Source: Dehalococcoidia bacterium
Lineage (GTDB): Bacteria > Chloroflexota > Dehalococcoidia > UBA2979
NCBI GenBank assembly: GCA_050248355.1
Contig: JBFWSN010000004.1
Span: 13,530-77,529 of the forward strand
Direction of reading: 5' to 3'
DNA: 64,000 bases
Part shown: in pieces, positions 19,764-54,163 of the stretch
How positions within the stretch are numbered: the stretch's first letter is position 1
How the letters are laid out: each line of letters starts with the position of its first letter
Position numbers and translations under genes: made by a program
Notes under the pieces: model-generated
What the model was told of the DNA's origin: nothing
The model's database searches: none
Seen by the model: the letters and a program-made list of their open reading frames with translations, nothing else

Positions 19764-19905
19764 CAGCGCGCGTTCCAGCCCCTCACGAGGGGTGACATCG
19801 GGGCCCGCTGGCCCGGCGCCGCAGGCCCGGGCCGCGAGCAAAGAACAGCAGGGAGCAACGGGGCCGATGGTGCCTCGCGCTCATGCAGAAAGGGAGTTAC
19901 GAAGG

Positions 19906-20396: not shown

Positions 20397-20669
20397 GTGA
20401 CCGAGAAGTTCGACGACATGAGCAAGCACATGGCCCGCAAGCATTCCCGTCGGGGGCTGATCCGAGCCCTCGGGGCGGGCGTCCTCGGCGCCACCGCGGC
20501 AGCCGCGCTGCCGACCGTGGCGAGCGCGGACTGGGGTGCGTTCCGCCGAGGATCGTACCTCCGCAACACGTACGGTCCGCAGTGGTACACCGTGGACAAT
20601 GGGCAGAACCAGAACGTCATCGGGCAGATCCGGTGGAACCAGTCGCTGCCCAACCCCGGGGCCGACTAG
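20397..20669 (+). CDS. Small secreted peptide precursor, paralog 3
   Basis: RBS AGGAGG before the GTG. Leader …SRRGLIRALGAGVLGATAAAALPTVASA, then DWGAFRRGSYLRNTYGPQWYTVDNGQNQNVIGQIRWNQSLPNPGAD. Confidence 0.6.
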   Translation: MTEKFDDMSKHMARKHSRRGLIRALGAGVLGATAAAALPTVASADWGAFRRGSYLRNTYGPQWYTVDNGQNQNVIGQIRWNQSLPNPGAD

Positions 20670-20757
20670 CATCGTAGGGTGCTGAACCGCGGCCGTCGTC
20701 ATCGTCGGTAGCACGGGCGATCGTCGACGGATGTGTCAGCCTCAGTGAGGAGCGAAA

Positions 20758-21021
20758 GTGACCGAGAAGTTCGACGACATGAGCAAGCACATGGCCCGCA
20801 AGCACTCGCGTCGAGGGCTCATCCGCGCCCTCGGGGCGGGCGTCCTCGGCGCCACCGCGGCAGCCGTGCTGCCGACCGTCGCGAGCGCGGACTGGGGTGC
20901 GTTCCGCCGGGGATCGCAGCTCCGCGACACGTACGGTCCGCAGTGGTACACCGTGGACAATGGCCAGAATCAGAACGTCCTCGGACCGATCCGCTGGAAC
21001 CAGATGCGTACGGAACCGTAG
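20758..21021 (+). CDS. Small secreted peptide precursor, paralog 4
   Basis: Near-identical to paralog 3 (DWGAFRRGSQLRDTYGPQWYTVDNGQNQNVLGPIRWNQMRTEP) and carries the same leader. Confidence 0.6.
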   Translation: MTEKFDDMSKHMARKHSRRGLIRALGAGVLGATAAAVLPTVASADWGAFRRGSQLRDTYGPQWYTVDNGQNQNVLGPIRWNQMRTEP

Positions 21022-21088
21022 TTCGTCAGTGACCGACCAGGGCGGGCCCGAGACTGGCTTTCAGGGCCAGGGCGTCTCGGGCCCGCTC

Positions 21089-21877
21089 GTGTCCGTCGTC
21101 CTCACCACCCGCGATCGCCCTCATCTCTTGCCGATCGCGTTCCGCTGCTTCGAGCTCCAGAGCTACCCCAACCGCGAACTGATCGTCGTGGACGATGGTC
21201 TCGAATATCCAGCTGACGTCTCGTCACTCCCGGCCGACGCCGTCCGCGTCGTCCGCGTCCCGCCCGGAACCCCCCTCGGTGTCAAGCTGAACCACGGCGT
21301 CGATGCTGCCCGTGGCCGCCTCTGCATGAAGATGGACGACGACGACTGGTACGCCCCGGAGTACCTCGCGACATCCGTCGATGCACTCATCGAGAGCGAG
21401 CGCCGGTTCTGCCGTCCGACCCTCGTCTTCCACCTGGGCTTTCTGTTCTTCGAACTGAGGACGTGGCGCATCCACCTGTCCGTGCAGGACAACGCCCCCG
21501 GCGCGACGCTTCTCTTCGCGAAGAGCGACTGGCGCCGCCGCCCCTTCCGTCCGGTCCCCACCGACGAGGACGCCTGGTTCTACCGCGACCAGGTCCTCGC
21601 CGGCGCCCTGCCCCTCCCCATCGACTCGATCGACACGTTCGTCGCCATTCGCCATCGGGGCCATCGAGGGACGTTCGGCCACACGTGGACCTACCAGCTC
21701 GACGGCAGATCGCTGGAGGACTATCTCGCCAGGCGCCCCGTCTACACCCGCACCCCCGAGCAGATGTTCCCCGACTGGGCCCTGCGGACCTACCGCCGCA
21801 TCCACGAAGACCTCGTCGCCCAGGAGCGCGAGGAGGAGCCCGCGGCTCCGATCGATGCGACTCCGGCTCCCGCGTAG
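21089..21877 (+). CDS. Glycosyltransferase family 2 (GT-A fold)
   Basis: N-terminal VSVVLTTRDRPHLL, DxD motif (VVDDG) and acidic MDDDDWY are present. The start is taken as the GTG at 21089; the ORF is open further upstream but would then overlap peptide paralog 4. Confidence 0.65.
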   Translation: MSVVLTTRDRPHLLPIAFRCFELQSYPNRELIVVDDGLEYPADVSSLPADAVRVVRVPPGTPLGVKLNHGVDAARGRLCMKMDDDDWYAPEYLATSVDALIESERRFCRPTLVFHLGFLFFELRTWRIHLSVQDNAPGATLLFAKSDWRRRPFRPVPTDEDAWFYRDQVLAGALPLPIDSIDTFVAIRHRGHRGTFGHTWTYQLDGRSLEDYLARRPVYTRTPEQMFPDWALRTYRRIHEDLVAQEREEEPAAPIDATPAPA

Positions 21878-26618: not shown

Positions 26619-28415
26619 ATGTCCGCGGAAACCGAGCAACGGAACGCACACCTGGTCTTGGATCGCCGTCTCTTCTTGCGAGGCGGGTCGTTCGCCCTTG
26701 GAGGCATCGCCGCCGCGGCGCTGGTCGGCTGCGGGGGCGACGATGACGACACCGGTGCGCCTGCCGCTACCTCGACCGGAACAGCCACCACCGTCATTCC
26801 CAAGAACCAGAACCCGGCGCAGGTGAAGACGGACCCAAATCTGCCGTTCCCCCTTGGCATCGCTGAACCGGATCGGCCCGCGAAGGATGGCGGAACGCTG
26901 AACGTCGCCGTCAGCTGGGACGTCTCGACGATGGACCCGAGCAAGTCCGCCGCGGGTGGCACCATTACTGTGCCCAACGTTGGCTACGACCGGCTCATTG
27001 GCTTCGTCAGCGGCATTCATTACGACCCGTTGAAGCTCGAACTCAAGCCGGAGCTGGCGACCTCATGGGAACGAAGCCCTGACGGCCTCGTCTATACCTT
27101 CAAGATCCGCTCTGGCACGAAGTGGCAGAACCTCCCGCCCCTGAATGGCCGTGCCTTCGTCGCTGACGACGCCGCATTCGCGCTTGGTCGCTACAAGACC
27201 GAGGGCGTCCATCAATCCATTCACAGCGAGGTCGACCGATTCGAGGCTCCCGACCCCGCCACCCTCAAGATCACGATGAAGAAGCCGCTCGCGGACTACA
27301 TCAACAACCTCGGTGGGCGCTATCAGACGATCTTCCCGAAGGAGCTCGTGGACGATGGCTCTATCGACAGGACCGTCGTCGGCACCGGCCCGATGATCCT
27401 CCGCGAGGCGAAGGCACAGCAGCAGGTCACGTTCGAGAAGAACCCTGATTACTGGCAGGGAAAGATCCACCTCGATGGTCTGATCTTCAAGATCATGCCC
27501 GATAACACCGCACGCACGGCCGCGTTTCGTGCCGGTCAGATCGAGTACGCGTACGCACTTGCCGCCAAGCTCAGCGACGTGAAAAACATCCAGCGGACGA
27601 ACCCGGACGTTCAGGTGTTCATGGCCGGCGGCACCGCCGGCGGCTACGGCTTTGGGATGAACCTTCAGCATTCGAAGTTCCGTGACGAACGCGTACGACG
27701 CGCCATCTCCCTGTCCAACGACCACGAACAGACCGTGGCGCTGCTCTTCGAGAATTACGGCGTGGCCGCTCCCGACCAGCCCTGGTCATTCGTGCTCGAC
27801 CGTCTGCCGGACTACAAGACCGGCGACCAGGGGCAGTGGGTGCAGCCCAATGGCGACCCCACTCAGGCGAAGCAACTCCTCGACGCCGCCGGCGCAGCGA
27901 ACCTCACGATCAACGCCGTCTATTACACGTACGGTCAGTACGATGCTGACCGCCCGCAGGTCCTCACGGACCAGTTCCGCAAGTCCGGCATTACGCTCAA
28001 CGCCCGTCGCGTCGAGTACACCGAGTTCAACTCCCAGTGGGTGCCCGGGAAACTCGAAGAAGCGACGACAAGTGGTTGGTCCGCCGGCGGGTTCGACGCT
28101 GACAACTACTTCTACAATCAGATCTACTCGAAGTCGCCCGGCAACCGTCACCACCTCGAAGACCCACAGGTGGACCAGTGGGCCGATCAGCAGCGCACTG
28201 AACTTGATCCGGCGAAACGCAAGGAAATCCACAGAAAGATCTGGGACCGCATCTGGGTCGATCAGATGTATCGCATTCCGCAGGCGGGCTTCTACGGCTA
28301 CGAGGTCATGCAGCCCTGGCTGAGAGGATGGCGCGGCGCTGGCGGCCCGCTCGGCTCCAGCAGTTACTTCTACGACTGGGGCGAGCAACTCATCGACATC
28401 TGGCTCGACAAGTAG
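26619..28415 (+). CDS. ABC transporter substrate-binding protein, family 5 (peptide/nickel/opine type), Tat-lipoprotein
   Basis: The Tat/lipobox region LDRRLFLRGGSFALGGIAAAALVGCGG is followed by an SBP_bac_5-like body. Confidence 0.85.
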   Translation: MSAETEQRNAHLVLDRRLFLRGGSFALGGIAAAALVGCGGDDDDTGAPAATSTGTATTVIPKNQNPAQVKTDPNLPFPLGIAEPDRPAKDGGTLNVAVSWDVSTMDPSKSAAGGTITVPNVGYDRLIGFVSGIHYDPLKLELKPELATSWERSPDGLVYTFKIRSGTKWQNLPPLNGRAFVADDAAFALGRYKTEGVHQSIHSEVDRFEAPDPATLKITMKKPLADYINNLGGRYQTIFPKELVDDGSIDRTVVGTGPMILREAKAQQQVTFEKNPDYWQGKIHLDGLIFKIMPDNTARTAAFRAGQIEYAYALAAKLSDVKNIQRTNPDVQVFMAGGTAGGYGFGMNLQHSKFRDERVRRAISLSNDHEQTVALLFENYGVAAPDQPWSFVLDRLPDYKTGDQGQWVQPNGDPTQAKQLLDAAGAANLTINAVYYTYGQYDADRPQVLTDQFRKSGITLNARRVEYTEFNSQWVPGKLEEATTSGWSAGGFDADNYFYNQIYSKSPGNRHHLEDPQVDQWADQQRTELDPAKRKEIHRKIWDRIWVDQMYRIPQAGFYGYEVMQPWLRGWRGAGGPLGSSSYFYDWGEQLIDIWLDK

Positions 28416-30783: not shown

Positions 30784-32589
30784 ATGTCTGACTTCAACAT
30801 CGACCGCTTCCGCGAGTTCCGCCTCGGACGCCGGGCCGCGCTGCGAGGCGGCGCACTGGCCCTCGGTGGCGTCTCGCTTGCCGCCCTCGTGGGCTGCGGC
30901 GGCGACGAGGACGGCGGCGACGACCCCGTCCCCGGCGTCCGAGGTGAGACGACGGCCGTCGCGACGGTCGCGCCCGGCGTCGACCAGAACCCGGCTCAGC
31001 TCGTACAGCAGGAGGGGCTGCCGTACCCGTTCGGCTACCCCGAGCCATCGACGACGCCGAAGGACGGCGGCACCGCCACCGTCGCCGTGAGCTGGGACAT
31101 CTCCACGATGGACCCGACACGGTCCGCCGCCGGTGGCACGATCACCGTGCCCAATACCTCGTACGACCGCCTCATCGGCTTTGTGAGCGGCATCCACTAC
31201 CACCCCTTGAACCTCGAGCTGAAGCCCGAGCTGGCCGAGTCGTGGGAGCGCAGCCCGGACGGCCTCATGCTCACCTTCAAGCTGCGTCCCGGCGTCCAGT
31301 GGCACAACGTGGCTCCGCTCAACGGCCGCCCCTTCGTTGCCGAGGACGTCGTATCGGCCTACCGGCGCTACCAGTCGGAAGGCGTGCACCAGTCGATCTG
31401 GATCGAGGTCGACAACATCGAGGCGCCGGACGACGCCACCGTCCGCATCACGCTGAAGACGCCGCTCGCCGACTTCATCAACAACCTGGCCGGCCGTTAC
31501 CAGACCATCTTCCCCAGGGAGCTGGTCGACGACGGCTCGATTGAACGCACGGTCGTCGGCACCGGGCCGCTCATCTTCCGTGACGCACAGCAGACGCAGG
31601 CGGTGAACTTCGACCGCAACCCCGACTACTGGGGCGGCCCGATCCACGTCGACAGCTTCGTGTACCGCATCATCCCGGACCTCAACGCCCGCACGGCCGC
31701 GTTCCGCGCCGGCCAGGTCGAGTACGCCTATGCCATCGCCGGCCGCGCCAGTGAGGTCGAGGTGATTCGAGGCACGAACCCGGACGTGAACGTGCACATG
31801 ACCGGCGGCACCGCCGGCGGCTACGGCTTCGGCATGAACCTGCAGAACCCGAAGTTCGCGGACGAGCGCGTCCGCCGCGCCATCTCCCTGGCGAACGACC
31901 ATCGCACGACCATCGCGCTCCTCTACGAGAACTACGGCCTTGCCGCGCCGGACATGCCTTGGCCCTTCCTCTACCAGGACGCTCCAGACCTGCAGAGCGG
32001 CGTGCTCGGCGAATGGGTCAGGCCCTCCGGCGACCCCGAGCAGGCGCGCCAGCTCCTCGAGGCTGCCGGCGCTGGCGGCCTCACGATCAATGCCTCCTAC
32101 TACACGTACGGCCCCTACGACGCGACGCGTCCCGAGCTGCTGGCCGACCAGTTCCGGCGGGCGGGGATCACGCTCAACGCCCGCCGCGCGGACTACACCG
32201 AGTTCAACTCGCAGTGGGTGCCCGGCAACCTCGAGGAGGCCACCACCAGCGGCTGGGCAGCCCCCGGCTTCGACGCCGATAGCTACTTCTACAACCAGGT
32301 GCACTCCGCCTCGCCGGGGAACCGCCACAAGCTCCAGGACTCGCAGATCGACGCCTGGGCCGAACGGCAGCGCGTCCAGCTCGATCCCGCCGCGAGGGCC
32401 GAGCTCCAGCAACAGATCTGGGATCGCATCTGGCTCGACCAGATGTACCGCATCCCCCAGGCCGGCGGGTACTCCTACGAGATCCACCAGCCATGGTTCC
32501 GGGGCTTCCGCAGCGGCGGCCCGCTCGGCACCAGCAGCTACTTCTACGACTGGGGCGAGCAGATTCCGGACATTTGGCTGGACCGCTGA
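30784..32589 (+). CDS. ABC transporter substrate-binding protein, family 5 (paralog of 26619..28415), Tat-lipoprotein
   Basis: The LGRRAALRGGALALGGVSLAALVGCGG leader is present. The mature sequence is collinear with the first SBP at roughly 60-70% identity. Confidence 0.85.
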   Translation: MSDFNIDRFREFRLGRRAALRGGALALGGVSLAALVGCGGDEDGGDDPVPGVRGETTAVATVAPGVDQNPAQLVQQEGLPYPFGYPEPSTTPKDGGTATVAVSWDISTMDPTRSAAGGTITVPNTSYDRLIGFVSGIHYHPLNLELKPELAESWERSPDGLMLTFKLRPGVQWHNVAPLNGRPFVAEDVVSAYRRYQSEGVHQSIWIEVDNIEAPDDATVRITLKTPLADFINNLAGRYQTIFPRELVDDGSIERTVVGTGPLIFRDAQQTQAVNFDRNPDYWGGPIHVDSFVYRIIPDLNARTAAFRAGQVEYAYAIAGRASEVEVIRGTNPDVNVHMTGGTAGGYGFGMNLQNPKFADERVRRAISLANDHRTTIALLYENYGLAAPDMPWPFLYQDAPDLQSGVLGEWVRPSGDPEQARQLLEAAGAGGLTINASYYTYGPYDATRPELLADQFRRAGITLNARRADYTEFNSQWVPGNLEEATTSGWAAPGFDADSYFYNQVHSASPGNRHKLQDSQIDAWAERQRVQLDPAARAELQQQIWDRIWLDQMYRIPQAGGYSYEIHQPWFRGFRSGGPLGTSSYFYDWGEQIPDIWLDR

Positions 32590-42064: not shown

Positions 42065-42199
42065 CGGACGAGTATCGGCGCTGTGCTGGCGCCGCACGAG
42101 TGGTCTCGCTCGCCTCGTTTCGTTGCCCGGCTCGTTAACACGCACTGAACAACTGAGAGGCAACGTTCGCCGTGCGAAACCTGAAGGGAGCCTGCCGGC

Positions 42200-45100
42200 A
42201 TGGTCTCGTCCACGCCCACCGTTACGCCTGAGTCCACGGAGCAGCATCGCCGCCGCGTCATTCTCGATCGGCTGGCGGACCACATCGCCACGCGGCTCCC
42301 CCAGTCGGAGGCCGAGCTGTTGCAGCGCTTCGCGCGCGTCTACTACGCGCGCGTCCCTATCGAGGACCTCGAGGGCACCGACATCGTGGATCAGTTCGGT
42401 GCGGCTCTCTCGCACTGGACGTTCGGGCAGCGCCGCGAACCCGGGGCCGCTCGCGTCCGCGCGTTCACGCCCGACCCCGAGCGGTCTGGCTGGCGCAGCC
42501 ACCACGATGTCGTCGAGATCGTGGTCGACGACATGCCGTTCATCATCGATTCGGTCACGGGCGTGCTGCAACGGCGGGGGCTCGATGTTCACCTCGTGAT
42601 CTCCCCGACGCTCGCCGTGGTCCGCGACGCCGACGGGATCGCCACCGCCGTGACCGACGACCGCGCCGACGAAGCCGGCCACCGCGAGACCTTCATCCAC
42701 GTCGAGTTGGATCGCGTTCCCCTTCCCGAGGCGCTCCGCGAGATCGAGCAGGACCTGACGGCGGCGATTGAGGATGTGGCCGCCGCGGTCGGCGACTGGG
42801 CGGCGATGCGCGCGCGTGTCGGCGACATCGCGGCAAGCCTCGAAGGAGAGGCGCTCGCCTTCGTCGAATGGCTCCTTGGCGACCACTTCACCCTGCTCGG
42901 ATGCGCCCGCTTCGACACACCGGCGGCCGAGGAGCCCGCGCAGCCCGTCGCCGGCACCGCGCTTGGCATCCTCCGCCGTCCCGGCCGGCTGGACCGCATC
43001 GAGCCCCCGGCTGATACCGCTGAGGAACTCCACGTCTCCAAGGGCCGCGAACGGTCGTCCGTCTCGCGGCCCGTCCACCTCGATGAAATATGGGTGCCCC
43101 GCCGTGACGCGCCGTCCGGCGCCCAGGGGTGGGATCTGGTCACCGGTCTCTTCGGCGCGGCGGCCTACACCGGCAGCGTCACTGCCGTGCCACTCCTCCG
43201 CCAGAAGGTAGCCGCCGTCCTCGATCGCTCGGGCGCCGCTCCAGGCGGGCACGCGTACAACCGGCTGCAGACCGCGCTCGAGCAGTACCCCCGCGACGAG
43301 GTATTCCAGTCTTCCGTCGACCTCCTCGAGGTGCACGCCGCCGCCATCACCGAGCTCCGCGACGCAAGCCGCGTGCGAGTCCTGGTCAGACAGGACGGGC
43401 GCGGACGCTACTACTCGTGCCTCGTGTTCCTCCCGCGCGACCAGTACACCACCGAGCTCAGGTTGCGCGTCCAGGCCATCCTTGCCGAGGAGTTCGGCAC
43501 CGACGACTTCGAGTACACCGCGCTGGTATCTGAGTCGCCGCACGCCCGGCTCCACTACGTACTCCACGGTCCCGATCCCGCCCTGACGCCGACGCGCGCC
43601 GTGCTCGAGGAGCGCATCCGCCTGGTCGCCCGCGACTGGTCGGTCGCCCTTCGTGGCGAGCTGATCGAGGTCGATGGTGAAGCTCGCGGCATCGAGGAGT
43701 TCGCCGTCTTCGCGCGCGCGTTCTCCCGCGGCTACCGCGAGCAGTACTCCGCGCGCACCGCCGTCGTCGACATCAAGCGCGTGCTCGCCCTCCCTGCCGA
43801 CGACGGGATGGCCGTCCAGTTGCGGCAGCGCCCCGAGGATCCGCCGGACCTGCGCCGCTTCAAGCTCTACGCCACCGGCGCCGAGATCTCGCTCTCGCGG
43901 GTCATGCCAATCCTGCAGAACCTGGGTGTCGACGTCCTCGACGAGCGTCCCCATCGCGTCGAGCCTGCGGACCGCGCGCCCGTGTGGATCTACGACTTCA
44001 CGTTGCGGCTCCCCGCCCTCGCGCTGGCGAGGGAGGACGACACCGCGCACGATCGGTTCGAGGAGGCCTTCTCCGCGGTCTGGCGAGGCGAGGCCGACGA
44101 CGACCCGCTCAACCGGCTCATCGTCGTCGCGGGCTTCCGCAACCGCGAGGTCGTCCTGATGCGCGCGTTCGTGCATTACCTCCGCCAGATCGGCCTCCGC
44201 TTCAGCGACGATTACATCGCCGAGATGCTGGTCGAGCACGTCCCGGTCACGGCCGCGCTCATCCGCCTGTTCGAGCGCAGGCACCACCCCGAGCACGGCG
44301 ACGCATCGCTCGACCTCGCCGCCGACATCCTCGCCCACATCGCCGAGGTCGAGAGCCTCGAGCACGACCGCCTGCTGCGCGCCCTCCTCTCCGTCATCAT
44401 GGCGTCCGTCCGCACGAACTACTTTCAACGCGGTTCGGACGGCAGCGCGCGCGAGGTCATCGCTTTCAAGCTCGCGTCGCGCTCCATTCCGGAAGCGCCC
44501 GAGCCCCGCCCGCTCTTCGAGGTGTTCGTCTTCGCCAGCCGTGTCGAGGGCGTCCACCTGCGCTCCGGACCGGTCAGCCGGGGTGGCATCCGCTGGTCGG
44601 ATCGCCGCGAGGACTTCCGTACCGAGATCCTCGGGCTCATGCATACGCAGACGGCGAAGAACGCCTTCATTGTCCCCACCGGCGCCAAGGGCGGCTTCAT
44701 CGTGCGTCGCCCGCCCGCAGACCGCCCCGCCTTCCTGCAGGAGGGCGGGGCCTGCTACCGCATGCTCATCAACGCGCTGCTCGACATAACCGACAACATC
44801 GTGGCGGGAAAGGTGATCGCGCCGCCCCACACCATCCGCTACGACGGCGACGACCCGTACCTCGTGGTCGCAGCCGACAAGGGGACGGCCTCCTTCTCCG
44901 ATATCGCCGATGAGATCAGCGTCCAGCGCGGATTCTGGCTGGGTGACGCCTTCGCCTCCGGTGGCTCCGTCGGATACGACCACAAGGCGATGGGCATCAC
45001 TGCTCGCGGCGCCTGGGAATCGGTCCAGCGCCACTTCCGCGAGCTCGGCGTCGACGTGCAGACCGAGCCGATCACCGCCGTCGGCGTTGGCGACATGTCC

Positions 45101-46996
45101 GGCGACGTCTTCGGCAACGGGATGCTCCTCTCGCGCAGCCTGAAGCTCATCGCCGCGTTCGACCACCGCCACATCTTCGTGGACCCCGACCCGGATGCCG
45201 CTGTGTCATTCGAGGAGCGGACTCGACTCTTCGCGCTGCCCGCTTCGTCGTGGGCGGACTACAACGCCGCTCTCATTTCGCCCGGGGGCCTCGTGGTTCC
45301 GCGCAACGCGAAGTCCGTGATCCTGTCGCCCGAGGCCCGGCGGGCGCTCGACGTCGCCGGCGAGGAGGTCACGCCGGACGAACTCATCACGGCGATCCTC
45401 AAGGCGCCCGTCGACCTGCTCTGGAACGGCGGCATCGGCACCTTCGTCAAGTCGAGGTTCGAGGCGCATGCGGACACCGGAGACCGCTCCAACGATGCCA
45501 TTCGCGTCGACGCCGATGCGCTCCGCTGCCGGGTCGTCGGGGAAGGCGGCAACCTCGGCTTCACCCAGGCCGCTCGCATCGAGTACGCCCTTGCGGGCGG
45601 GCGCATCTACACGGACTTCATCGACAACTCCGGTGGTGTCGACACCTCGGACCGTGAGGTCAACATCAAGATCGTTCTCGACCGCGCCGTCGCCGAGGGC
45701 GACCTCACCGAGAAGCAGCGTGTCGACCTCCTGCGCGCCATGACCGATGAGATCGCGGCAGCCGTCGTCCTCGACAACTACGCCCAGACCGGAGCGCTCA
45801 CGAACGCGTTCTCGCAGGCGCACCTGATGGTCGATGTACACGCGCGGCAGCTCGCTCGCCTCGAGTCGCAGATCGGCCTCAACCGCGCCCTCGAGGGTCT
45901 CCCCCCGGACGATGTCCTCGCCGACCGCCGCGCTGCCGGGAAGGGACTCCAGCTCCCTGAGCTCTCCGTGTTGCTCGCCTACACCAAGCTATTCGTTCGC
46001 GGTGCGCTCATCGACTCCGAACTCACGGACGACCCCTGGTTCGCCGAGGAGATCGCAGGTTACTTCCCCTCGCTGCTCCGCGAGCGCTTCCCGCGCCAGA
46101 TCGCCGACCACCCGCTGCGCCGAGAACTGGTCGCCGCGCAGGCCGCCAACCACGTCGTGAACTACGCGGGCATCTCGATGGTGCACCGCATGATCGATGA
46201 GACATCGGCCACGGTCGCCGACATCGTGCGCGCGCACTACGCCGCATGGCACCTCTTCGACATGGCGCCGCTGTGGGACGAGATCGCTGCGCTCGACCTC
46301 CGTGTGCCCGCGCGCGTCCAGACCGAGATGTTCCTCGAATGCCGCCGCCTCGCCGAGCGGAGCACGCGCTGGCTTCTCCGGCACCGCCGTTCGCCGCTCG
46401 AGGTAGCGCCGACCATCGAGACCTTTCGCCCGACGGCCCGCGCCGTCCGGGAGGCGCTCCCCACGCTGCTTCAAGGCTCTGCCGCCGAGAAGCGCGTCGG
46501 CCTGATCGCCTCGCTCGTCGCCGAAGGGGTTCCCGAAGCCACCGCGACGCGAGTCGGCGACCTGGGCGAGATCGTCGCGGTGCTCGACATCGTTGATCAG
46601 GCACTCCGCACCGACACGCCTCCCGAGCGGGTCGCCGAGGTGTACTTCGTGCTCGAAACCCGCCTCGGGTTCGCATGGCTCGTCGAGCGGATCAACGCGC
46701 TTCCGCGGGACGACCGCTGGCAGTCGCTCGCCCGCTCGGCGCTGCGCGACGACCTGCTCGCCGAGCTCGCGCGTGTCACCGGCGATGTAGCGACCGCGCG
46801 GTCATCCGAGGAGTCGGCGGAGATGGTCTACGAGCGCTGGGCGACGCACAACGCGGAACCCAGGGCGCGCGCGCAGCTGGTGCTCGACGCCGTTCGCGGC
46901 CTCGGCCATGCCGGGCTCGCCCCGCTCAACGTCGCTCTGCTCGAAGTGCGAAACCTCCTCCACCAGTCGTCCCTGCCAGCTGCGGGCGGCTCCTGA
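42200..46996 (+). CDS. gdh: NAD-specific glutamate dehydrogenase, large (~180 kDa) class
   Basis: 1598 aa, with the Bac_GDH-type catalytic core (…GPVSRGGIRWSDRREDFRTEILGLMHTQTAKNAFIVPTGAKGGF…) embedded in long N- and C-terminal regions. Confidence 0.9.
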   Translation: MVSSTPTVTPESTEQHRRRVILDRLADHIATRLPQSEAELLQRFARVYYARVPIEDLEGTDIVDQFGAALSHWTFGQRREPGAARVRAFTPDPERSGWRSHHDVVEIVVDDMPFIIDSVTGVLQRRGLDVHLVISPTLAVVRDADGIATAVTDDRADEAGHRETFIHVELDRVPLPEALREIEQDLTAAIEDVAAAVGDWAAMRARVGDIAASLEGEALAFVEWLLGDHFTLLGCARFDTPAAEEPAQPVAGTALGILRRPGRLDRIEPPADTAEELHVSKGRERSSVSRPVHLDEIWVPRRDAPSGAQGWDLVTGLFGAAAYTGSVTAVPLLRQKVAAVLDRSGAAPGGHAYNRLQTALEQYPRDEVFQSSVDLLEVHAAAITELRDASRVRVLVRQDGRGRYYSCLVFLPRDQYTTELRLRVQAILAEEFGTDDFEYTALVSESPHARLHYVLHGPDPALTPTRAVLEERIRLVARDWSVALRGELIEVDGEARGIEEFAVFARAFSRGYREQYSARTAVVDIKRVLALPADDGMAVQLRQRPEDPPDLRRFKLYATGAEISLSRVMPILQNLGVDVLDERPHRVEPADRAPVWIYDFTLRLPALALAREDDTAHDRFEEAFSAVWRGEADDDPLNRLIVVAGFRNREVVLMRAFVHYLRQIGLRFSDDYIAEMLVEHVPVTAALIRLFERRHHPEHGDASLDLAADILAHIAEVESLEHDRLLRALLSVIMASVRTNYFQRGSDGSAREVIAFKLASRSIPEAPEPRPLFEVFVFASRVEGVHLRSGPVSRGGIRWSDRREDFRTEILGLMHTQTAKNAFIVPTGAKGGFIVRRPPADRPAFLQEGGACYRMLINALLDITDNIVAGKVIAPPHTIRYDGDDPYLVVAADKGTASFSDIADEISVQRGFWLGDAFASGGSVGYDHKAMGITARGAWESVQRHFRELGVDVQTEPITAVGVGDMSGDVFGNGMLLSRSLKLIAAFDHRHIFVDPDPDAAVSFEERTRLFALPASSWADYNAALISPGGLVVPRNAKSVILSPEARRALDVAGEEVTPDELITAILKAPVDLLWNGGIGTFVKSRFEAHADTGDRSNDAIRVDADALRCRVVGEGGNLGFTQAARIEYALAGGRIYTDFIDNSGGVDTSDREVNIKIVLDRAVAEGDLTEKQRVDLLRAMTDEIAAAVVLDNYAQTGALTNAFSQAHLMVDVHARQLARLESQIGLNRALEGLPPDDVLADRRAAGKGLQLPELSVLLAYTKLFVRGALIDSELTDDPWFAEEIAGYFPSLLRERFPRQIADHPLRRELVAAQAANHVVNYAGISMVHRMIDETSATVADIVRAHYAAWHLFDMAPLWDEIAALDLRVPARVQTEMFLECRRLAERSTRWLLRHRRSPLEVAPTIETFRPTARAVREALPTLLQGSAAEKRVGLIASLVAEGVPEATATRVGDLGEIVAVLDIVDQALRTDTPPERVAEVYFVLETRLGFAWLVERINALPRDDRWQSLARSALRDDLLAELARVTGDVATARSSEESAEMVYERWATHNAEPRARAQLVLDAVRGLGHAGLAPLNVALLEVRNLLHQSSLPAAGGS

Positions 46997-47000
46997 GGCT

Positions 47001-47035
47001 CACAGGGGGCACCGTCGCGCGACGGTGCCCCTGTG
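47001..47035 (+). terminator. Strong GC hairpin (CACAGGGGGCACCGTCG-CG-CGACGGTGCCCCTGTG) 5 nt after the gdh stop
   Basis: A ~16-bp inverted repeat read from the sequence. Confidence 0.55.
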
Positions 47036-47051
47036 AAACACCCCGCGTAGA

Positions 47052-47432
47052 ATGACGGACGTGTTCGTCGACAGGGAGGAGTGGGGCATGACGCTGTACA
47101 TCGGCTTCTACACGATCGACCCGCATTTCCAGCGGGAGTCCGGCGAGCGCGCTCGGTCGGGCGATAACACGATGGATGAGCGGTTCGGGCGCAAGGTCGT
47201 CGAGCTTCGCGATCGGCTGCCTGCCTCGCTGAAGCTCCTCGGCTCCTACGCCACCCAGAGCGCAGAGCGCCCGAACATCTGGCTCTGCGAGACGGACAAC
47301 CAGGCCGACCTGCAGTTCGTGAGTAACTACTACGAGGGCTACCTGCGCTTCGACTGGGTCCCGGCGACTGTCATTGGCGCTAACGCCGCCGAGACCGAAG
47401 CGCGTCGACAGGCCTCTGCCGCCAACCGCTGA
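47052..47432 (+). CDS. Hypothetical protein
   Basis: 126-aa ORF with no recognisable motif. The internal start MTLYIGFY (47091) is also possible. Confidence 0.35.
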   Translation: MTDVFVDREEWGMTLYIGFYTIDPHFQRESGERARSGDNTMDERFGRKVVELRDRLPASLKLLGSYATQSAERPNIWLCETDNQADLQFVSNYYEGYLRFDWVPATVIGANAAETEARRQASAANR

Positions 47433-47524
47433 GGCGGCCGGCCCGGCTCGAGACGCGCAACAACGAGGCGGCCGGTGACAGCCGGCCGCCTCTTCCGAGC
47501 ATCGATATCGCGGCGCTCGAGACG

Positions 47525-48232: not shown

Positions 48233-48374
48233 GGCAACTCCTCAATTCGTCAGTGGTCGGCGCCCGCAGTCTGCCAGACCCACCCTGCCGCTTCAATGAC
48301 CAATGGCCCTCGCCGCAAGGGCCCTTCGGCCACCGTAGTCCCCATCCGCGCCCCGCACCCGCCTCCCGAGGCGA

Positions 48375-49790
48375 TCACTCGCCGAGCGCATCCCGAAACT
48401 CGTAGTAGCTCAGCACCTTCCGCATCGCCGTCGCCGCCCGCTCGTACGTCGGGTAGGCCGCCACGCCGATCTCACGCAGCCGCGCGTCGAGGTCCGCGAC
48501 CGCCGGCCCGTCCTCGAGCGGCGTCGAGGAGGAGACGAGCGCCGCCACTGGCTTCCCGCTCCGCTCGCGCAGCCGCGCGAGCGCCGCCAGCTGCCCGTCG
48601 AGCCGCTCCTGGTCCGCCGCGTCCCCCGACCACGGCCGCACCTGCATCACCAGTGAGTCGATCGCCGGGTCCTCCGCCAGCACGTCGAGGATCGTGTCCA
48701 TCTCGCTCCGGTTCGACCCCATGTCCACCGGGTTGTTGAAGCTCGCCCCCACGAGGCTGAACCAGCTCGCGAGGCGCTCCCGCGACGCCTCCGACAGCGC
48801 CGGCACCCGCATCCCCGCCCGCGAGAACACGTCCGCCATCGCCACAGACTGCCCGCCCGAGCCGCCCGTCAGCCCCACCCCGTTGCCGCTGAAGCGCGGC
48901 CACAACCGCAGCCCCTTCAGCACGTCCACCATCTCCAGCACCGAGGTCACCGGGATCGCCCCCGTCTGCCGGAACACCGCGTCCCACACCTCGGCCGCCC
49001 CCGCCAGCGACGCCGTGTGTGACGAGGTGGCCCGCCCGCCCGCGTCCGTCAGCCCGCCCTTCCACAGCACCACCGGCTTCCGCCGCGCCGCCTCCCGCAG
49101 CGCCGCGAAGAACCGAGGCCCGTCGCGCAGCCCCTCCACGTACATCGCGATGTACCGCGTCGCCTCGTCCGCCCCGAAGTACTCGAGGTAGTCCGCGTTC
49201 TCGAGGATGACCCCGTTCCCGAAGCTGATCGCCATTCGCACCGGCACCCCTGAGGCGTGCGCCGCCATCGAGAAGTCCACTGCGTGCCCGCCGCTCTGCG
49301 AGAGGAACGTGACGTCCCCCTCGAACCCCGCCGGCTGGTTCTCCATGAACCGCACTCCGAGGCCGGGGTGGTACAGCCCCATGCAGTTCGGCCCGATCAG
49401 CGGCAGCCGCGCCTCGCGCGCCATCTCCGTGATCCGCTGCTGCTGCGCCCGCCCCTCATCGGTGTCCGTCTCCGCGAACCCCGAGGTGAACATCCCCACC
49501 CCGCCCACGCCCTTGGCGATGCAGTCGCGCAGCACCACCGCCGCCGCAACCCGCGGCACCGCCACCAGCGCGTAGTCGATCTCGTCCGGCACATCGAGGA
49601 GGCTCGTGTAGTTCGGCACCCCCAGCTCCTCGATCCCCGGAATCTCCTTCGGATCGATCTGCACCGAATACACCTTGCCCGTGAACGTGCTCAACGACCG
49701 GATCCACCGGTAGTTCCGCACCTTCGCATCCCCGATCACCGCCACCGTCCGAGGATGCAGCATCCGCTCGAGGTCATACCCCACCGCCAT
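48375..49790 (-). CDS. CoA-binding-domain protein of the NDP-forming acyl-CoA synthetase / succinyl-CoA synthetase-alpha family
   Basis: VAVIGDAKV…GPNCMGL… CoA-binding motifs plus the ligase-CoA domain. Confidence 0.75.
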   Translation of the reverse strand: MAVGYDLERMLHPRTVAVIGDAKVRNYRWIRSLSTFTGKVYSVQIDPKEIPGIEELGVPNYTSLLDVPDEIDYALVAVPRVAAAVVLRDCIAKGVGGVGMFTSGFAETDTDEGRAQQQRITEMAREARLPLIGPNCMGLYHPGLGVRFMENQPAGFEGDVTFLSQSGGHAVDFSMAAHASGVPVRMAISFGNGVILENADYLEYFGADEATRYIAMYVEGLRDGPRFFAALREAARRKPVVLWKGGLTDAGGRATSSHTASLAGAAEVWDAVFRQTGAIPVTSVLEMVDVLKGLRLWPRFSGNGVGLTGGSGGQSVAMADVFSRAGMRVPALSEASRERLASWFSLVGASFNNPVDMGSNRSEMDTILDVLAEDPAIDSLVMQVRPWSGDAADQERLDGQLAALARLRERSGKPVAALVSSSTPLEDGPAVADLDARLREIGVAAYPTYERAATAMRKVLSYYEFRDALGE

Positions 49791-49856
49791 CGCACCCCTC
49801 CCTCACGCCTTCGCACGCGGCTCGCGAGCGGATGATACGTCGAGGTATCACGATTG
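49719..49856. repeat. Direct repeat copy A (~140 bp) spanning the 5' end of the CoA-binding gene; its partner is at 50863..51005
   Basis: About 85 bp have only 3 mismatches (CACCTTCGC[AG]TCCCCGATCACCGCCACCGTCCGAGGATGCA…CATCGCACCCCTCC). A second shared block is GCGGATGATACGTC. Confidence 0.7.
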
Positions 49857-49969
49857 GCCTAGAGAAGACGGAAGCCGATCGATTCACCTCCGGCGTCTTC
49901 CGATCCCTCCCCCGTTCCGGGCGGAGGGTGAGGGTGGGGGTTCCCTCCGGCGTCCGTCCGTGCGCCTTC

Positions 49970-50851
49970 TCAGCCCCCGGCGGCGACCACCAGCGCCGCC
50001 CGCCGCTCCGCCGCCAGCTGCCGCGAGTCATACACCGAGGTCGCCCGCGTCACCATCCCGTCCGCGTCGAGCTCCAGCGCCGTGATCCCGACGAGCCCGT
50101 CCGCGGCCGTCCACTCGAACCCGCCGCCCGAGGCGCCCCCCACCACGTGCCGCAGCCGGCTGCCCGCGCCGTACGGCGCACCGCCCAGCACCCGCCCGAG
50201 GTATCGCGTTGCCTCCGCGCGCCCGACCAGCTGCGCCCGCAACGCCATGTCCTCGAACAGCACATCCGGATGCAGCAACGCCGCCACCGCCGCCGCGTCC
50301 CCCGCTGCGAGGCCCCGCTGCATCGTCGTCGCGATCTCGACCAGCTCCGCCGCAGCCTGCGAGGGCACCCGCGACTCCTTCAGGTCGCGCGGGAACGACT
50401 CCTCAGGCGTCCGCATCGACTCGTACGCCGCCGTGTCGAAGAAGAAGCTGTCCCAGTAGTCCACCCACCGCACGATCTTCCCGTCGACGAAGTCGACCGC
50501 GCCGAGGATGCGCAGCTCCCCGCCGAACAGCTCCGGCGTGTCCACCATCCGCACCAGCGCGCTCGACTCCCCCGCGAGCACCCCCGTCTGATACGACCGC
50601 GCCGTCGGCGGCCACGTCGGCATGTACTGCGCGAACAACCCCCGCAACGCCTCGAACCCATCGAGGCCCCACCCCAGCGTCGCGTCCGTATACGTCACCA
50701 GCCCCGAGGAGAAGAACCCCATCGTCCCCTCAACATCCGCCGCGCTCTTGACGCGAAAGAACCGCTCAAACGTCTCGATCAGCGGTGATGACGCGGCTTC
50801 CGAGTCCGAAGTCATCGAGCCGTTGCACAATCCCGCGCCGTCGCCCGCCAC
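49970..50851 (-). CDS. Tandem NTF2-like / SnoaL-like domain protein
   Basis: Two repeats of an NTF2-like fold (…IVRWVDYWD… / …LLHPDVLFED…). The start may be the internal MTSDSE at 50815. Confidence 0.5.
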   Translation of the reverse strand: MAGDGAGLCNGSMTSDSEAASSPLIETFERFFRVKSAADVEGTMGFFSSGLVTYTDATLGWGLDGFEALRGLFAQYMPTWPPTARSYQTGVLAGESSALVRMVDTPELFGGELRILGAVDFVDGKIVRWVDYWDSFFFDTAAYESMRTPEESFPRDLKESRVPSQAAAELVEIATTMQRGLAAGDAAAVAALLHPDVLFEDMALRAQLVGRAEATRYLGRVLGGAPYGAGSRLRHVVGGASGGGFEWTAADGLVGITALELDADGMVTRATSVYDSRQLAAERRAALVVAAGG

Positions 50852-50862
50852 GCCGTATCAAC

Positions 50863-51005
50863 CACCTTCGCGTCCCCGATCACCGCCACCGTCCGAGGAT
50901 GCACCATCCACTCGAGGTCATACCCCACCGCCATCGCACCCCTCCATCCCACCCACGACGCCACGCCACCCGCGCGGATGATACGTCTCCGCCCCATCAC
51001 AATCG
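50863..51005. repeat. Direct repeat copy B. It contains a decayed copy of the CoA-binding gene start (MAVGYDLEWMVHPRTVAVIGDAKV) and borders the low-GC island.
   Basis: See copy A. The 62-aa ORF 50812..51000 is this duplicated pseudo-5' end. Confidence 0.7.
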
Positions 51006-51030
51006 CGTGGAGAGGCCGAGGTTCGGATCG

Positions 51031-52773
51031 CTAGTCGAACCGGAAACCAAACAATCCCCCCTCCTCCGTCTCGTCCGTCAGGACGACCGGCAGACGGTAA
51101 TCATCTATGGAGAAGCTCCGGCTGAAATCCGCAATGGGAACGTCGTCGGAGTTCATCGTGACGATGTACTGGAAATCGAATTCCTCCGCACGCGCCGCAG
51201 CCAACTCCAGAGCAGTCGCGACTTGCCGGTCGTCAACACCATCAAACAAGTGTGAGTCATGAATCAAGAACCCCGGCCCTAAGTTGCGTCGAGCGAGGAG
51301 AACTGCGATCATCATATCGAACGTAAAGATTTGCATGTTGTTGATCCCGCGACTCTGACTTCCAGGGGCCTCAACCCGCACCTCGAGACCGTTCGCCGTC
51401 GCGTCGATAGTGAGGTTCCCCGAACGCTCTGAGAGTGCCGAGGAGATTTCTTCGAACGTAACAATTGCCTCGTTCACTACACCGCGACGTTCCTCTATGT
51501 CCTGCTGTTGTCTGAGTTGTAGCCTGGCTCGATCCACGCCTAGCTCGACTCGGTTGTTGTCCAGCTGCTGGACTGACGCTAACCGTTGCCGTAAACTCTC
51601 CGCTTGCGCCTCGAGCCGTGATATCTCCTGCTGCAACATAAGGAATTGGTCAAGAGCGCCACGTGAGCGCAAGATTGACCAGAGTTCTCGACGTCGTCGA
51701 TCCAGCTCGGCCATCCGCATCTCTCTTGCTGCGATGCGTCGGAGTGCTGCCTGCTCCTCGGCCGCGAGATATGATCTCCTGTTCTGAAGAATCGCACTAT
51801 GAAATTCGGCTGCCTCTTCAAAACGACGACGCACACTCCCGGGCAGGGAAATGCCTACTTCACCGTATAGTTCGGTTAGACGATCAACTCCCGGTGCCTG
51901 CTCTCCTTCTGATCCAAGATCGCCCGCGAGATCGGAGAGCAACTGCCTGTCGATTGTGTTTTCATCCGATAGGAAGGCGATTTCGCGTGTGACAAAGGAC
52001 GCCTCTTCCTCCCGTTCCCGGTACTCTGGAAGAACCTCAAAAGCCGCAGCGCGTCCATGTGCTAAGCGCACGCGTTCCTCCGCAAGCGCTAGCTGCGAAC
52101 GCAGTTCAGCAGCACTGCCTAGAGCATCGCCGATTACGCCACGGGAGGTCGCACGGCGAAGAGCGGCGAGTTCCTTCTCCTTGTCCCGGATCGAATCAAG
52201 CTCGGCTGGAATAGTCCAATCGAGACCGAGCAAGAATGCCAGCGCGACCTGCTGGTCACCAGTAGATTGCTGTGAGTTCTGCTTCACTGGGGTGGCGAAT
52301 GCGCCCGATTGAACGCGACGCGCCGCGTACGAAAAGAGCTGCCTAAACGTAGGTGCATGGGGAACCTGGTCATCCGGATTGACTCCGTAGAACTGAGTCC
52401 CTAGCAACGTCCGCCATCGGGGAATTGAGTACCGCTCCTCGGTGTGGCGTTGCGCATCGATGAAAGAATCCCGGCTTACAATGACGGTCCCGAAGTCCGT
52501 CCCAGACCTGCTGGCCACCAGTGACCCGTCGGGCAGGTCGAAGTCAGCGGAGAACGTGTACGGTGCCAGAACGGGATTTCGTAGAAAGTGATCTGTCCGT
52601 GCGTCCGCGCCGAAGAGAAAGTGAATGACCTCGACAAGACTCGATTTTCCAGCGGCGTTGCGGGTTTGCCGATCCGACGACTCCGGGAGACGTTCTGCTG
52701 TAAGGAGGTTCAGCCCTGCATGCAACTCGATGGTCTTGAATGACGAAAGAGAGCTGTAGATTCGACGAATCAT
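51031..52773 (-). CDS. SMC/RecF-like ABC ATPase with a long coiled-coil insert; candidate ATPase of an ABC-three-component (ABC-3C)-type system, DUF2326-like
   Basis: N-terminal ABC head: ELHAGLNLLTAERLPESSDRQTRNAAGKSSLVEVIHFLFG (Walker A). The central ~250 aa are Arg/Glu/Leu/Gln-rich coiled coil. The C-terminal head has GSQSRGINNMQIF (signature-like) and GFLIHDSHLFDGVDDRQV (Walker B / D-loop). GC is lower than the flanks. Confidence 0.65.
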   Translation of the reverse strand: MIRRIYSSLSSFKTIELHAGLNLLTAERLPESSDRQTRNAAGKSSLVEVIHFLFGADARTDHFLRNPVLAPYTFSADFDLPDGSLVASRSGTDFGTVIVSRDSFIDAQRHTEERYSIPRWRTLLGTQFYGVNPDDQVPHAPTFRQLFSYAARRVQSGAFATPVKQNSQQSTGDQQVALAFLLGLDWTIPAELDSIRDKEKELAALRRATSRGVIGDALGSAAELRSQLALAEERVRLAHGRAAAFEVLPEYREREEEASFVTREIAFLSDENTIDRQLLSDLAGDLGSEGEQAPGVDRLTELYGEVGISLPGSVRRRFEEAAEFHSAILQNRRSYLAAEEQAALRRIAAREMRMAELDRRRRELWSILRSRGALDQFLMLQQEISRLEAQAESLRQRLASVQQLDNNRVELGVDRARLQLRQQQDIEERRGVVNEAIVTFEEISSALSERSGNLTIDATANGLEVRVEAPGSQSRGINNMQIFTFDMMIAVLLARRNLGPGFLIHDSHLFDGVDDRQVATALELAAARAEEFDFQYIVTMNSDDVPIADFSRSFSIDDYRLPVVLTDETEEGGLFGFRFD

Positions 52774-53042
52774 GGTGACGTACGTGCCAACAGTCCGTCT
52801 GTCAGGATGACGGAGCCGATGATAAAGAGGAAGTCGAGGGCCAGGATAAACCAGTCATAACTGATTCGCCGGGTGGCATCTTCCCCCATTCGGAGACGGG
52901 TGTCCTCCCACAACCGAGAAACGGTCTTAGGAACGTCAAGGTGGGACAGCAGTTCTCCACCCACGAAGATCAGCGATCGATTCGCCGGGAGATGTTTAGT
53001 TGGCAGCAACACCGCTTGCCGCCTCGGACTCGAATATGTCAC
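52770..53042 (-). CDS. Small ORF (90 aa from a GTG start, or shorter) with a C-terminal hydrophobic helix; candidate middle component. Translationally coupled to the ATPase.
   Basis: Its TGA overlaps the ATPase ATG (ATGA at 52770-52773). Its 5' end overlaps the 3' end of the upstream 309-aa gene. No motif match. Confidence 0.3.
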   Translation of the reverse strand: MTYSSPRRQAVLLPTKHLPANRSLIFVGGELLSHLDVPKTVSRLWEDTRLRMGEDATRRISYDWFILALDFLFIIGSVILTDGLLARTSP

Positions 53043-53925
53043 ACCGTTCGAACAGGTAGGCCACGATGGCTAGCGCGGCGTGTAGGTCGGCGGGTTTTGC
53101 CGAGCTTCCCCCAGCAAATTCGACCAGGGATCCAAAAATACTGTCAGGGCTTTGGCGTTCACTGCGGAGCGCGCGATATTGGTCTGTGAATGAGCGCGCG
53201 ACATCGTCGCCGTAGGTGGGATCGGCGACGCGGCCGAGGTAGTGAGCGACGACATCGGACTTCTGCATCCCCATTCGAAGGAATTCGCTCACCGCGTCGG
53301 AAAGCTGGTTAATGGCGATCTTGTCCGCTGGCGGCGGTCGCAGCTGACTGGCGACGGTGCCCGCACTCGAACGCAATACCTCGAGGAGCGGCGCGATTTC
53401 ACTGGCGGAAACGGTACGCATCCCCGACGGCGTCGGCGGCAGCCCAAAGATCGCCTCTAGATCGCCCGCAGACAACTCCAGAGTAACGGTTAGCAGCTCC
53501 TCAAAGCCCCAGGACCGGACGAGTAGCGGCGGATTCTGCTTCTCGAGTCGGAGGAGCCGGTCGACGACTTGATACGATAAGCCAGTGCGGTCGTTGTGCA
53601 CAAAAACCCAAGTGTCGAAGTACTCGCTCCAGTAGGGCAAGCACCCGGCGAAGTCTTTATTGATCTTCCCCACCGCGGCGGCGGCACGCATCTCCCGGGG
53701 AGCATACACTTGGAAGAGGCGACGTTCGGATCGCAAATACCCGTCGCTCTTGCGGTCGCCGATGGCTCCCCAGGGGCGCATGCGGATGAAGTCCTCCCGG
53801 TGGCGTCGCGACATCAGATCCGCGAAGAGATCTTGAAAGGCCTCGCCGTGTCTTCGGGCGAAAGCGACCTCGAGTTTCATTTCGTACCACGACCGCGTTG
53901 GCTCGGGGTGTTGCGGACTAGCCAT
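52996..53925 (-). CDS. Hypothetical 309-aa protein, first gene of the island operon (candidate effector/partner component)
   Basis: MASPQHPEPTRSWYEMKLEVAFARRHGEAFQDLFADLM…PWGAIGDRKSDGYL… No confident domain call. It is co-oriented and overlapping with the next two genes. Confidence 0.5.
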   Translation of the reverse strand: MASPQHPEPTRSWYEMKLEVAFARRHGEAFQDLFADLMSRRHREDFIRMRPWGAIGDRKSDGYLRSERRLFQVYAPREMRAAAAVGKINKDFAGCLPYWSEYFDTWVFVHNDRTGLSYQVVDRLLRLEKQNPPLLVRSWGFEELLTVTLELSAGDLEAIFGLPPTPSGMRTVSASEIAPLLEVLRSSAGTVASQLRPPPADKIAINQLSDAVSEFLRMGMQKSDVVAHYLGRVADPTYGDDVARSFTDQYRALRSERQSPDSIFGSLVEFAGGSSAKPADLHAALAIVAYLFERCDIFESEAASGVAAN

Positions 53926-54088
53926 ATCTCGCCGATCAATCGCGGAGACAGCCTAACAGAATACAATTGGAGTAGGTAGGCACCAATCGGCTCGGAGGTC
54001 GGGCGTTCGGCACATCGGGCGTTGGCGAGCAGTGCGCAGCGTGAGGCCACCCGCGCGCGCTATGCAGGCCGCTGAGGGTGTAAGGGGT

Positions 54089-54163
54089 TGGTAGCAGGGG
54101 GCGGATTTGAACCGCCGACCAAGGGCTTATGAGTCCCCTGCTCTACCACTGAGCTACCCTGCC
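54089..54163 (-). tRNA. tRNA-Met (anticodon CAT; could alternatively be tRNA-Ile2/lysidine type), CCA encoded
   Basis: Reverse complement: GGCAGGGTAGCTCAGTGGTAGAGCAGGGGACTCATAAGCCCTTGGTCGGCGGTTCAAATCCGCCCCCTGCTACCA. The acceptor, D, anticodon (loop CTCATAA) and T (GGCGG/TTCAAAT/CCGCC) arms fold correctly. Confidence 0.85.

Follow-up and report, generated by a model that had tools for sequence, protein, structure and literature searches.

Why does the beginning of a CoA-binding ligase gene occur twice, on either side of an NTF2-like gene and at the edge of a low-GC island beside a tRNA gene? The locus that raises this question lies in a 64,000-nucleotide stretch of a Dehalococcoidia genome (assembly GCA_050248355.1, contig JBFWSN010000004.1, positions 13,530 to 77,529), which we refer to as the window. 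All genes of the region are on the minus strand, and in the direction of transcription the order is tRNA-Met, a three-gene low-GC segment, a truncated copy of the ligase start (copy B), a 47-nt joint, the NTF2-like gene (hereafter NTF2), a 126-nt spacer, the ligase gene together with the other copy of the repeat (copy A), and a Usp gene. We propose that copy B, at the border of a variable defence slot, is an old duplicate of the ligase 5′ end that would have arisen in tandem, would now serve in the translation of NTF2 and would still take part in gene conversion with the working ligase. We assign this explanation as a whole a probability of about 0.7.

A truncated second copy of the ligase 5′ end

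A repeat search of the window returned a core of 91 nt at 93% identity (49719-49809 and 50863-50953), with both copies in the same orientation and a spacing of 1144 nt. Comparing the window with itself, as the initial annotation had proposed, recovers the pair by blastn over 126 columns at 87.3% identity and 150 bits; the best off-diagonal score in 20 composition-preserving block shuffles of the window was 42 bits. A 36-nt pattern from the core has exactly two matches in the window, against a chance expectation of 0. Past the core, a 2-nt indel and ~20 nt of diverged sequence are followed by an identical 14-nt block, GCGGATGATACGTC (49828-49841 and 50974-50987), and the alignment extends with weaker similarity for ~25 nt more, to about 49868 in copy A and 51014 in copy B. 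The full repeat spans 125-150 nt, for which the previously given length of ~140 bp is a fair summary. Window positions 54118-50720, which cover the tRNA, the island, copy B and the 5′ end of NTF2, are matched at 100% identity by a separate Logan assembly (L073), that of SRR27751815. As this identity runs across the junctions, the repeat structure is therefore not a mis-assembly.

Copy A includes the start of the ligase gene, MAVGYDLERMLHPRTVAVIGDAKV, and is the true start, as had been annotated. Copy B has MAVGYDLEWMVHPRTVAVIGDAKV at this place and continues as unrelated sequence, which agrees with its earlier description as a slightly decayed version at the edge of the low-GC island: directly beyond it the GC content changes from ~0.66-0.70 to ~0.55-0.60. 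Located 1.1 kb upstream of the real gene, it keeps the Shine-Dalgarno (SD) sequence, the ATG and 24 of the 471 ligase codons, and breaks off sharply at codon 24. Copy B is a partial gene duplication, or pseudogene fragment, with truncated similarity and without a functional domain. Of the shared part, 72 nt are coding and belong to the conserved CoA-binding N-terminus; copying thus went from the ligase gene to copy B.

It is scarcely credible that the two copies are a cis-regulatory RNA or DNA element (a riboswitch, operator or leader) used independently by two genes, or an assembly artefact. The TATCAT-containing block present in both copies would fit a shared element, but the strongest similarity lies across the 72 nt of coding sequence, and Rfam at E<=1 has no match in 49500-51300. 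An artefact is refuted by the same structure in L073 and in a different organism, represented by locus L066.

The ligase gene itself is functional and encodes the alpha-type part of an NDP-forming acyl-CoA synthetase. Its protein consists of a CoA_binding_2 domain (PF13380, residues 14-141), to whose N-terminus codons 1-24 belong, and a flavodoxin-like Succ_CoA_lig domain (PF13607, residues 158-292); the ATP-grasp part is absent from this open reading frame (ORF), which was considered alone. Full-length homologues are named 'acyl-CoA synthetase (NDP forming)' at JGI, and an exact look-up of the protein matched no record. Upstream of the gene, a block TAGGCCA..TCGTGAT..CGTATCATCCGC is kept in all five orthologous ligase loci (5/5), and the remainder of the NTF2-ligase spacer is ~50% identical between two allele types. 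The conserved TATCAT-containing block is a plausible promoter or operator. A scan of 49600-51200 for consensus sigma-70 promoters and terminators called nothing, so the case for a promoter is one of conservation.

Gene order points to NTF2 as the resident gene

We compared the window with related loci, a comparison also suggested in the initial annotation, and found conserved flanks, differing cargo between them and an orthologous copy B in L066. In L001, L002 and the pair L070/L071, whose ligases are 97%, 96% and 97% identical to that of the window, the order is purE, purK, DUF2277, tRNA-Met, cargo, NTF2, ligase, Usp (the L002 contig begins within purK). In L068 (NTF2 83% identical) the 3′ end of tRNA-Met is found 127 nt upstream of NTF2, and the slot is empty, and in L069 NTF2 is directly followed by Usp across a recognisably homologous spacer. 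The two loci together indicate that tRNA-Met, NTF2, Usp is the ancestral order. The nearest ligases outside the clade (84-87% identity) occur in unrelated contexts (Rce1-like and RES; luciferase-like and YHS). Within 10 kb of forty-odd ligase loci at <=60% identity (L003-L048) there is neither NTF2 nor Usp nor tRNA-Met; these loci are uninformative on the ancestral state, and a JGI metagenome scan with NTF2 returned relatives at <=62% identity only, which are of no use for synteny. The comparison indicates that NTF2 is the resident gene and that the ligase is a later arrival downstream of it.

These findings bear on the origin of the repeats, which had been read as the scar of an insertion or segmental duplication. 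The duplication part of that reading stands: the ligase 5′ end has been duplicated in part. No NTF2 insertion left the repeats behind as its scar, as NTF2 is resident in L068 and L069. The order in these two loci and the other contexts of outside ligases argue that NTF2 was not inserted between the repeats. It is thus highly improbable that NTF2, alone or with the island, entered the ligase 5′ end and left the repeats as a target duplication or insertion scar, even though just one gene lies between the repeats and copy B adjoins the low-GC island by the tRNA. NTF2 occupies the same place by tRNA-Met in L068 and by Usp in L069, where no ligase separates it from Usp, its GC content (0.67-0.76) is the same as that of the host, and the ligase is found elsewhere outside the clade. 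Moreover, a duplication of 125-150 bp is far above the size of transposase target duplications (about 2-15 bp), and the intervening 1.1 kb contains only NTF2, without a transposase or significant inverted repeats. A transposon or insertion sequence with a target-site duplication was also considered as an identity and rejected, given the length of the repeat and the lack of a transposase and of convincing bounding inverted repeats. The repeats had also been suggested as possible mediators of excision; no NTF2-less variant was seen among seven close-relative loci including NTF2 (the window, L066, L001, L002, L070 and L071, all with the ligase, and L073, which reaches the NTF2 5′ end only).

The neighborhood of NTF2 and the ligase shows further differences between loci. 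The ligase-Usp spacer has just 142 nt in the window (48233-48374) and ~556 extra nt in L001 (11425-11980), and in L070 (9478-9798) and also L071 a 106-aa gene of the cyclic-di-AMP receptor type (PF06153) lies on the opposite strand between ligase and Usp. Beyond Usp, a segment of ~5.4 kb with normal GC content (42078-47460) contains a 1598-aa ORF (42200-46996, plus strand), which in its length alone, with no family search made, is like an NAD-specific glutamate dehydrogenase, and a 126-aa ORF without a Pfam match. Neither L001 nor L002 has the segment, and in L070/L071 a Dus gene comes directly after Usp, which means either an insertion here or a deletion there. In L067 (943-1116), a 1.1-kb Logan contig with an 88% identical NTF2, a thioredoxin-like ORF with an apparent frameshift follows NTF2 instead of the ligase, and the motif preceding it, CCTCGGTATCATCG, resembles the ligase upstream block. 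This junction could be a rearrangement or an assembly chimera, and we do not build on it.

Copy B borders a variable defence slot

Defence islands located at hot spots between conserved core genes, often by tRNA genes, are an established concept. In our loci, shared flanks enclose an unrelated interval in the window/L073, L001, L002, L066 and L070/L071, and the interval carries defence genes, which makes it a variable defence hot spot. The cargo of the window (51031-54088) has a GC content of 0.55-0.62 compared with ~0.70 in the flanks and qualifies as an ABC-3C system, with PADLOC matches to PDC-M68A and PDC-M68B (5.8e-151 for PDC-M68B). Its place is taken by Shedu SduA (SduA_C) in L070 (5400-7039) and likewise in L071, and by a Rosmer-type RmrA with a 235-aa partner in L002 (519-2650), where 14 RmrA models match, the best at 1.2e-57. 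The cargo ORFs of L001 (7287-8968; one of 389 aa, on the opposite strand) and of L066 (1-2900; 436 and 437 aa) gave no Pfam or PADLOC match and are candidates for new defence genes. The tRNA-Met gene shows no difference in L001 and L002, and past its CCA end all loci diverge at once. We conclude that this is a recombination-driven variable defence slot; a recombination hotspot by the tRNA had indeed been suspected, and a slot with different cargo in each relative, empty in one, bears this out.

How the slot is exchanged can be seen in L002 and L066. Their ligase genes share 99.2% nucleotide identity (0.988 at four-fold sites), their NTF2 genes are 93% identical, and the cargo upstream is unrelated, which places a recombination breakpoint within or near NTF2. 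Among the window, L066, L002 and L001 the 5′ half of NTF2 is 95-98% identical and the 3′ half 76-98%. The L002/L066 pattern shows turnover of the slot at the strain level, with the flank carried along.

We found no sign of site-specific integration. The 25-nt 3′ end of tRNA-Met occurs once in the window with <=3 mismatches allowed, giving no attachment (att) repeat, and no integrase or recombinase is present among the three genes of the island (Pfam, PADLOC). Likewise, there is no integrase domain in the scanned cargo ORFs of L001, L002 and L066 or in the precomputed Pfam results for L070 and L071. An integrase-mediated tRNA-linked island was considered and rejected, as the island has no tRNA-derived flanking repeats and no tyrosine or serine recombinase. 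There is next to no chance that the repeats around NTF2 act as att sites, or as another functional recombination site, for site-specific excision of a mobile island: they are near a tRNA gene and a low-GC island, but they flank NTF2 rather than the island, the tRNA 3′ end is unduplicated, and the island and the scanned cargo of the relatives are free of integrases.

Copy B predates the split of these lineages

An orthologous copy B is present in L066 (~2914-3059), an ENA assembly from a different organism with a 91% identical NTF2, where the alignment scores 270 compared with a null maximum of 31. The junction is identical (…GCGAAGGTG directly followed by GTTGATAC…), as is the 47-nt joint, with different cargo behind it, and the copy A of L066 is of the other allele type. 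Remnants are located 60-110 nt upstream of NTF2 in L001, L067 and L002; that of L001 is a colinear stretch of 50 nt, with a score of 37 and a null maximum of 26. L002, with a ligase 99.2% identical to that of L066, has ~30 nt of copy B where L066 has it intact. We thus discarded a recent duplication, which is ruled out by the orthologous copy B behind different cargo in L066 and by the remnants in L001, L067 and L002.

These comparisons indicate that copy B is older than the split of these lineages and has been eroding from the cargo side at different rates. It arose in an ancestor of this small Dehalococcoidia clade, after the ligase had settled between NTF2 and Usp, and has outlived several cargo replacements; the window and L066 lineages keep it intact, whereas it is eroded in L001, L002, L067 and probably L070. 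As to its origin, we envisage two steps. A unit of ~1144 bp, from 47 nt upstream of NTF2 through NTF2 to ligase codon 24, would have been duplicated in tandem, and the first NTF2 copy would subsequently have been lost during a cargo replacement. Alternatively, copy B may have arisen in one step by a template switch or an illegitimate copy.

A different route would be import of copy B with an earlier cargo, from a related donor having cargo directly beside the ligase, with integration through homology at the tRNA-Met/purK side and through illegitimate joining upstream of NTF2, as in homology-facilitated illegitimate recombination. Exchange of cargo by recombination is clear from the L002/L066 pair. 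Also, the leader of copy B is unlike that of the copy A in the window, with its first ~12 nt resembling the L002/L066 allele type, and identity between the copies drops from the coding to the upstream part, as expected of an orthologous allele and not of uniform decay. We nevertheless consider import improbable, because we found no donor in which the ligase directly follows the cargo, because copy B agrees with the window/L001 allele type in its SD and coding part, and because homology-facilitated illegitimate recombination is experimentally rare (PMC5361080 and references therein).

We also tried to assign the leader of copy B to the L002 allele type. The site count is ambiguous (~24/36 matches to type I and 18/36 to type II) and is not relied on.

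NTF2 may have captured the translation signals of copy B

The NTF2 orthologues of L001, L002, L066, L067, L068, L069 and L070 all begin at an equivalent ATGAC. Upstream of this ATG, predicted pairing with the anti-SD sequence is weakest in the window (-4.1 kcal/mol) and in L066 (-4.0), and ranges from -5.1 to -10.3 kcal/mol in six relatives without an intact copy B. The 3′ end of the joint is homologous to the native upstream region of NTF2 (GGAGCAGGAGCCTCG in L068, TGTGCAACGGCTCG in the window), and we thus conclude that NTF2 has lost an SD of its own. Copy B in turn generates a 40-codon upstream ORF with strong predicted pairing (-9.8 kcal/mol), and an in-frame GTG at 50851 reaches -8.5 kcal/mol. 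In L066 the same 40-aa ORF is called at 2988-3110, with the same ATGA overlap. The pair of upstream ORF and NTF2 has the sequence hallmarks of translational coupling, namely an SD in front of the upstream ORF, an ATGA overlap and a downstream start without SD.

This arrangement suggests that NTF2 has captured the translation signals of copy B. Copy B would act as the translation-initiation region of NTF2 through the SD-strong upstream ORF ending at ATGA, by translational coupling. By another route, AAGGTGG in the last codons of copy B could provide the SD for the in-frame GTG at 50851. Copy B may possibly also be a source of promoter sequence for NTF2.

The protein database contains two such 40-aa ORFs only, one identical (encoded on L073) and the other from L066. 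The copy B core is ~93% identical in nucleotide sequence between window and L066, and thus exceeds the identity at four-fold sites of the flanking genes (0.80-0.84); this excess could reflect constraint or recent exchange.

A probable trace of gene conversion between the copies

Codon 12 of the ligase encodes His only in copy A of the window; all other ligases examined have Asn there or, in rare cases, Asp. Each version of copy B, remnants included, has CAY (His) at this codon. At synonymous position 54 the copy A of the window again agrees with copy B and differs from the four nearest copy A sequences, and positions 32 to 62 are the same in both copies of the window. A short gene-conversion tract from B to A has thus probably put Asn12His into the working ligase. 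This tract is the sole trace of recombination between the repeats.

One may go further and regard copy B as a domesticated, selectively maintained expression cassette (promoter remnant, strong SD and coupled ORF), which would buffer NTF2 against cargo turnover and would be a reservoir of ligase variants, such as Asn12His, by gene conversion. We find this extended view doubtful.

Evidence against the proposed explanation

Several observations weigh against the history and function proposed here. Two of the copy B remnants are barely above chance: that of L067 scores 29 with a null maximum of 28, and that of L002 scores 33 and is equalled or beaten by 2/300 shuffles. The trace in L070/L071 is not significant (22, null maximum 29). 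No genome was found with the postulated intermediate of NTF2, ligase 5′ end and NTF2, and the tandem mechanism is one that we propose. With regard to translation, the correlation with SD strength amounts to essentially one evolutionary event, since copy B of the window and copy B of L066 are a single lineage, and chance alone would put a start-overlapping TGA in frame in about one case out of three. The upstream ORF differs between window and L066 in 5/40 residues with ~3 silent differences (a hand count of the alignment, with few sites), which fits about neutral evolution of the peptide. The -10-like TATCAT of copy B is TGTCAC in L066; given this change and the empty promoter scan, a promoter role of copy B is not conserved. 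Finally, gene conversion rests on two sites, and outgroup L072 also has G at the synonymous one.

Relation to known systems

Displaced or orphaned fragments are known from the borders of other variable loci, as effector 3′ ends and orphan immunity genes in type VI secretion system (T6SS) arrays of Vibrio cholerae and as orphan modules of Rhs and contact-dependent inhibition (CDI) systems, and homology-facilitated illegitimate recombination was proposed for the displaced fragments in Vibrio T6SS arrays (PMC5361080). Like these, copy B is a piece of a neighboring gene that persists at the edge of a slot replaced by recombination, kept or eroded depending on the lineage. In contrast to them, it is a 5′ end with expression signals, derives from a housekeeping-type ligase rather than from cargo, and lies upstream of a core gene for whose translation it has apparently been recruited. 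The slot resembles other defence hot spots in that tRNA-Met with purK/DUF2277 and NTF2 with the ligase enclose ABC-3C/PDC-M68, Shedu and Rosmer systems, with one empty site. It differs from typical ones in the lack of an integrase and of att repeats, in its host, an uncultured high-GC member of the Dehalococcoidia, and in a repeat that seems to lie outside the exchange machinery.

As in pairs coupled by ATGA, an SD-strong upstream ORF has a stop that overlaps the start of a downstream gene without its own SD; here, however, the upstream ORF is the remnant of another gene's start, and coupling is suggested by sequence features. The same-orientation repeats of ~150 bp around 1.1 kb, one of them truncated at codon 24, resemble the outcome of tandem duplication with partial deletion or of a Campbell-type single crossover, but unlike in such cases neither an intermediate nor a circular form has been observed, and the mechanism remains a proposed one. 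Taken together, the feature is an instance of known processes in an uncultured lineage and not a new kind of element: an old, fairly ordinary duplication remnant, by which no general concept is changed.

Its value is that, in an uncultured Chloroflexota lineage, it lets one follow and date cleanly how a defence hot spot changes at its border. Here a duplicated fragment of a neighboring gene has survived several cargo swaps, has apparently been recruited for translating the adjacent core gene and, possibly, has altered the working gene by conversion. As copy B is intact, eroded or absent depending on the lineage, it may be used as a marker for strain typing, and the tRNA-Met slot holds at least five different cargos, two of them of no known family.

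Coordinates and other features of the window

Features of the locus in window coordinates, listed from the tRNA gene to the ligase.
Feature	Position	Strand	Evidence or content
tRNA-Met (CAT), outer conserved flank of the slot	54089..54163	-	ARAGORN
Low-GC cargo, three-gene ABC-3C system (PADLOC candidate PDC-M68)	51031..53925	-	Pfam, PADLOC
CTD10-containing protein (PF20275)	52996-53925	-	Pfam
MC6 (PF20293)	52770-53042	-	Pfam
DUF2326 ATPase (PF10088 with PF20275)	51031-52773	-	Pfam
Repeat copy B, truncated pseudo-copy	50863..51014	-	Ligase upstream region, SD (50939-50945), first 24 codons (50863-50934), TATCAT block 50974-50987
40-codon upstream ORF made by copy B (MAVGYDLEWMVHPRTVAVIGDAKVVDTAWRATARDCATAR)	50812..50934	-	TGA stop 50814-50812 overlaps the NTF2 ATG 50815-50813 as ATGA
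47-nt joint, copy B end to NTF2 start	50816..50862	-	3′ part homologous to the native NTF2 upstream region; SD lost; same in L066
NTF2-like gene, two SnoaL_2-type halves, 281 aa from ATG 50815	49970..50815	-	Pfam PF12680 in two stretches
Repeat copy A	49719..49868	-	Ligase codons 1-24 (49719-49790), SD GGAGGGG (49795-49801), 5′ leader, TATCAT-containing block (49828-49841), weaker similarity to ~49868
CoA-binding / succinyl-CoA-ligase-like gene, 471 aa	48375..49790	-	Pfam PF13607 5.6e-43, PF13380 3.1e-11

Two other regions of the window contain repeated sequence. Between 19479 and 21003 there are diverged repeats of ~350 nt (19479-19839 and 19843-20185 at 77% identity, 20386-20642 and 20747-21003 at 92%), which seem to code for small, mutually paralogous proteins having signal-peptide-like N-termini; Tandem Repeats Finder returned no repeat within 19000-21500. 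The adjoining ORFs of 367 aa (18385-19488) and 326 aa (20897-21877) we take to be redoxin-like and glycosyltransferase-like, respectively, as guesses from sequence with no family search. The arrangement may be a peptide-precursor array. Further along, two stretches of 1.5 kb (26881-28409 and 31058-32583) are 73% identical, suggesting paralogous genes ~4 kb apart.

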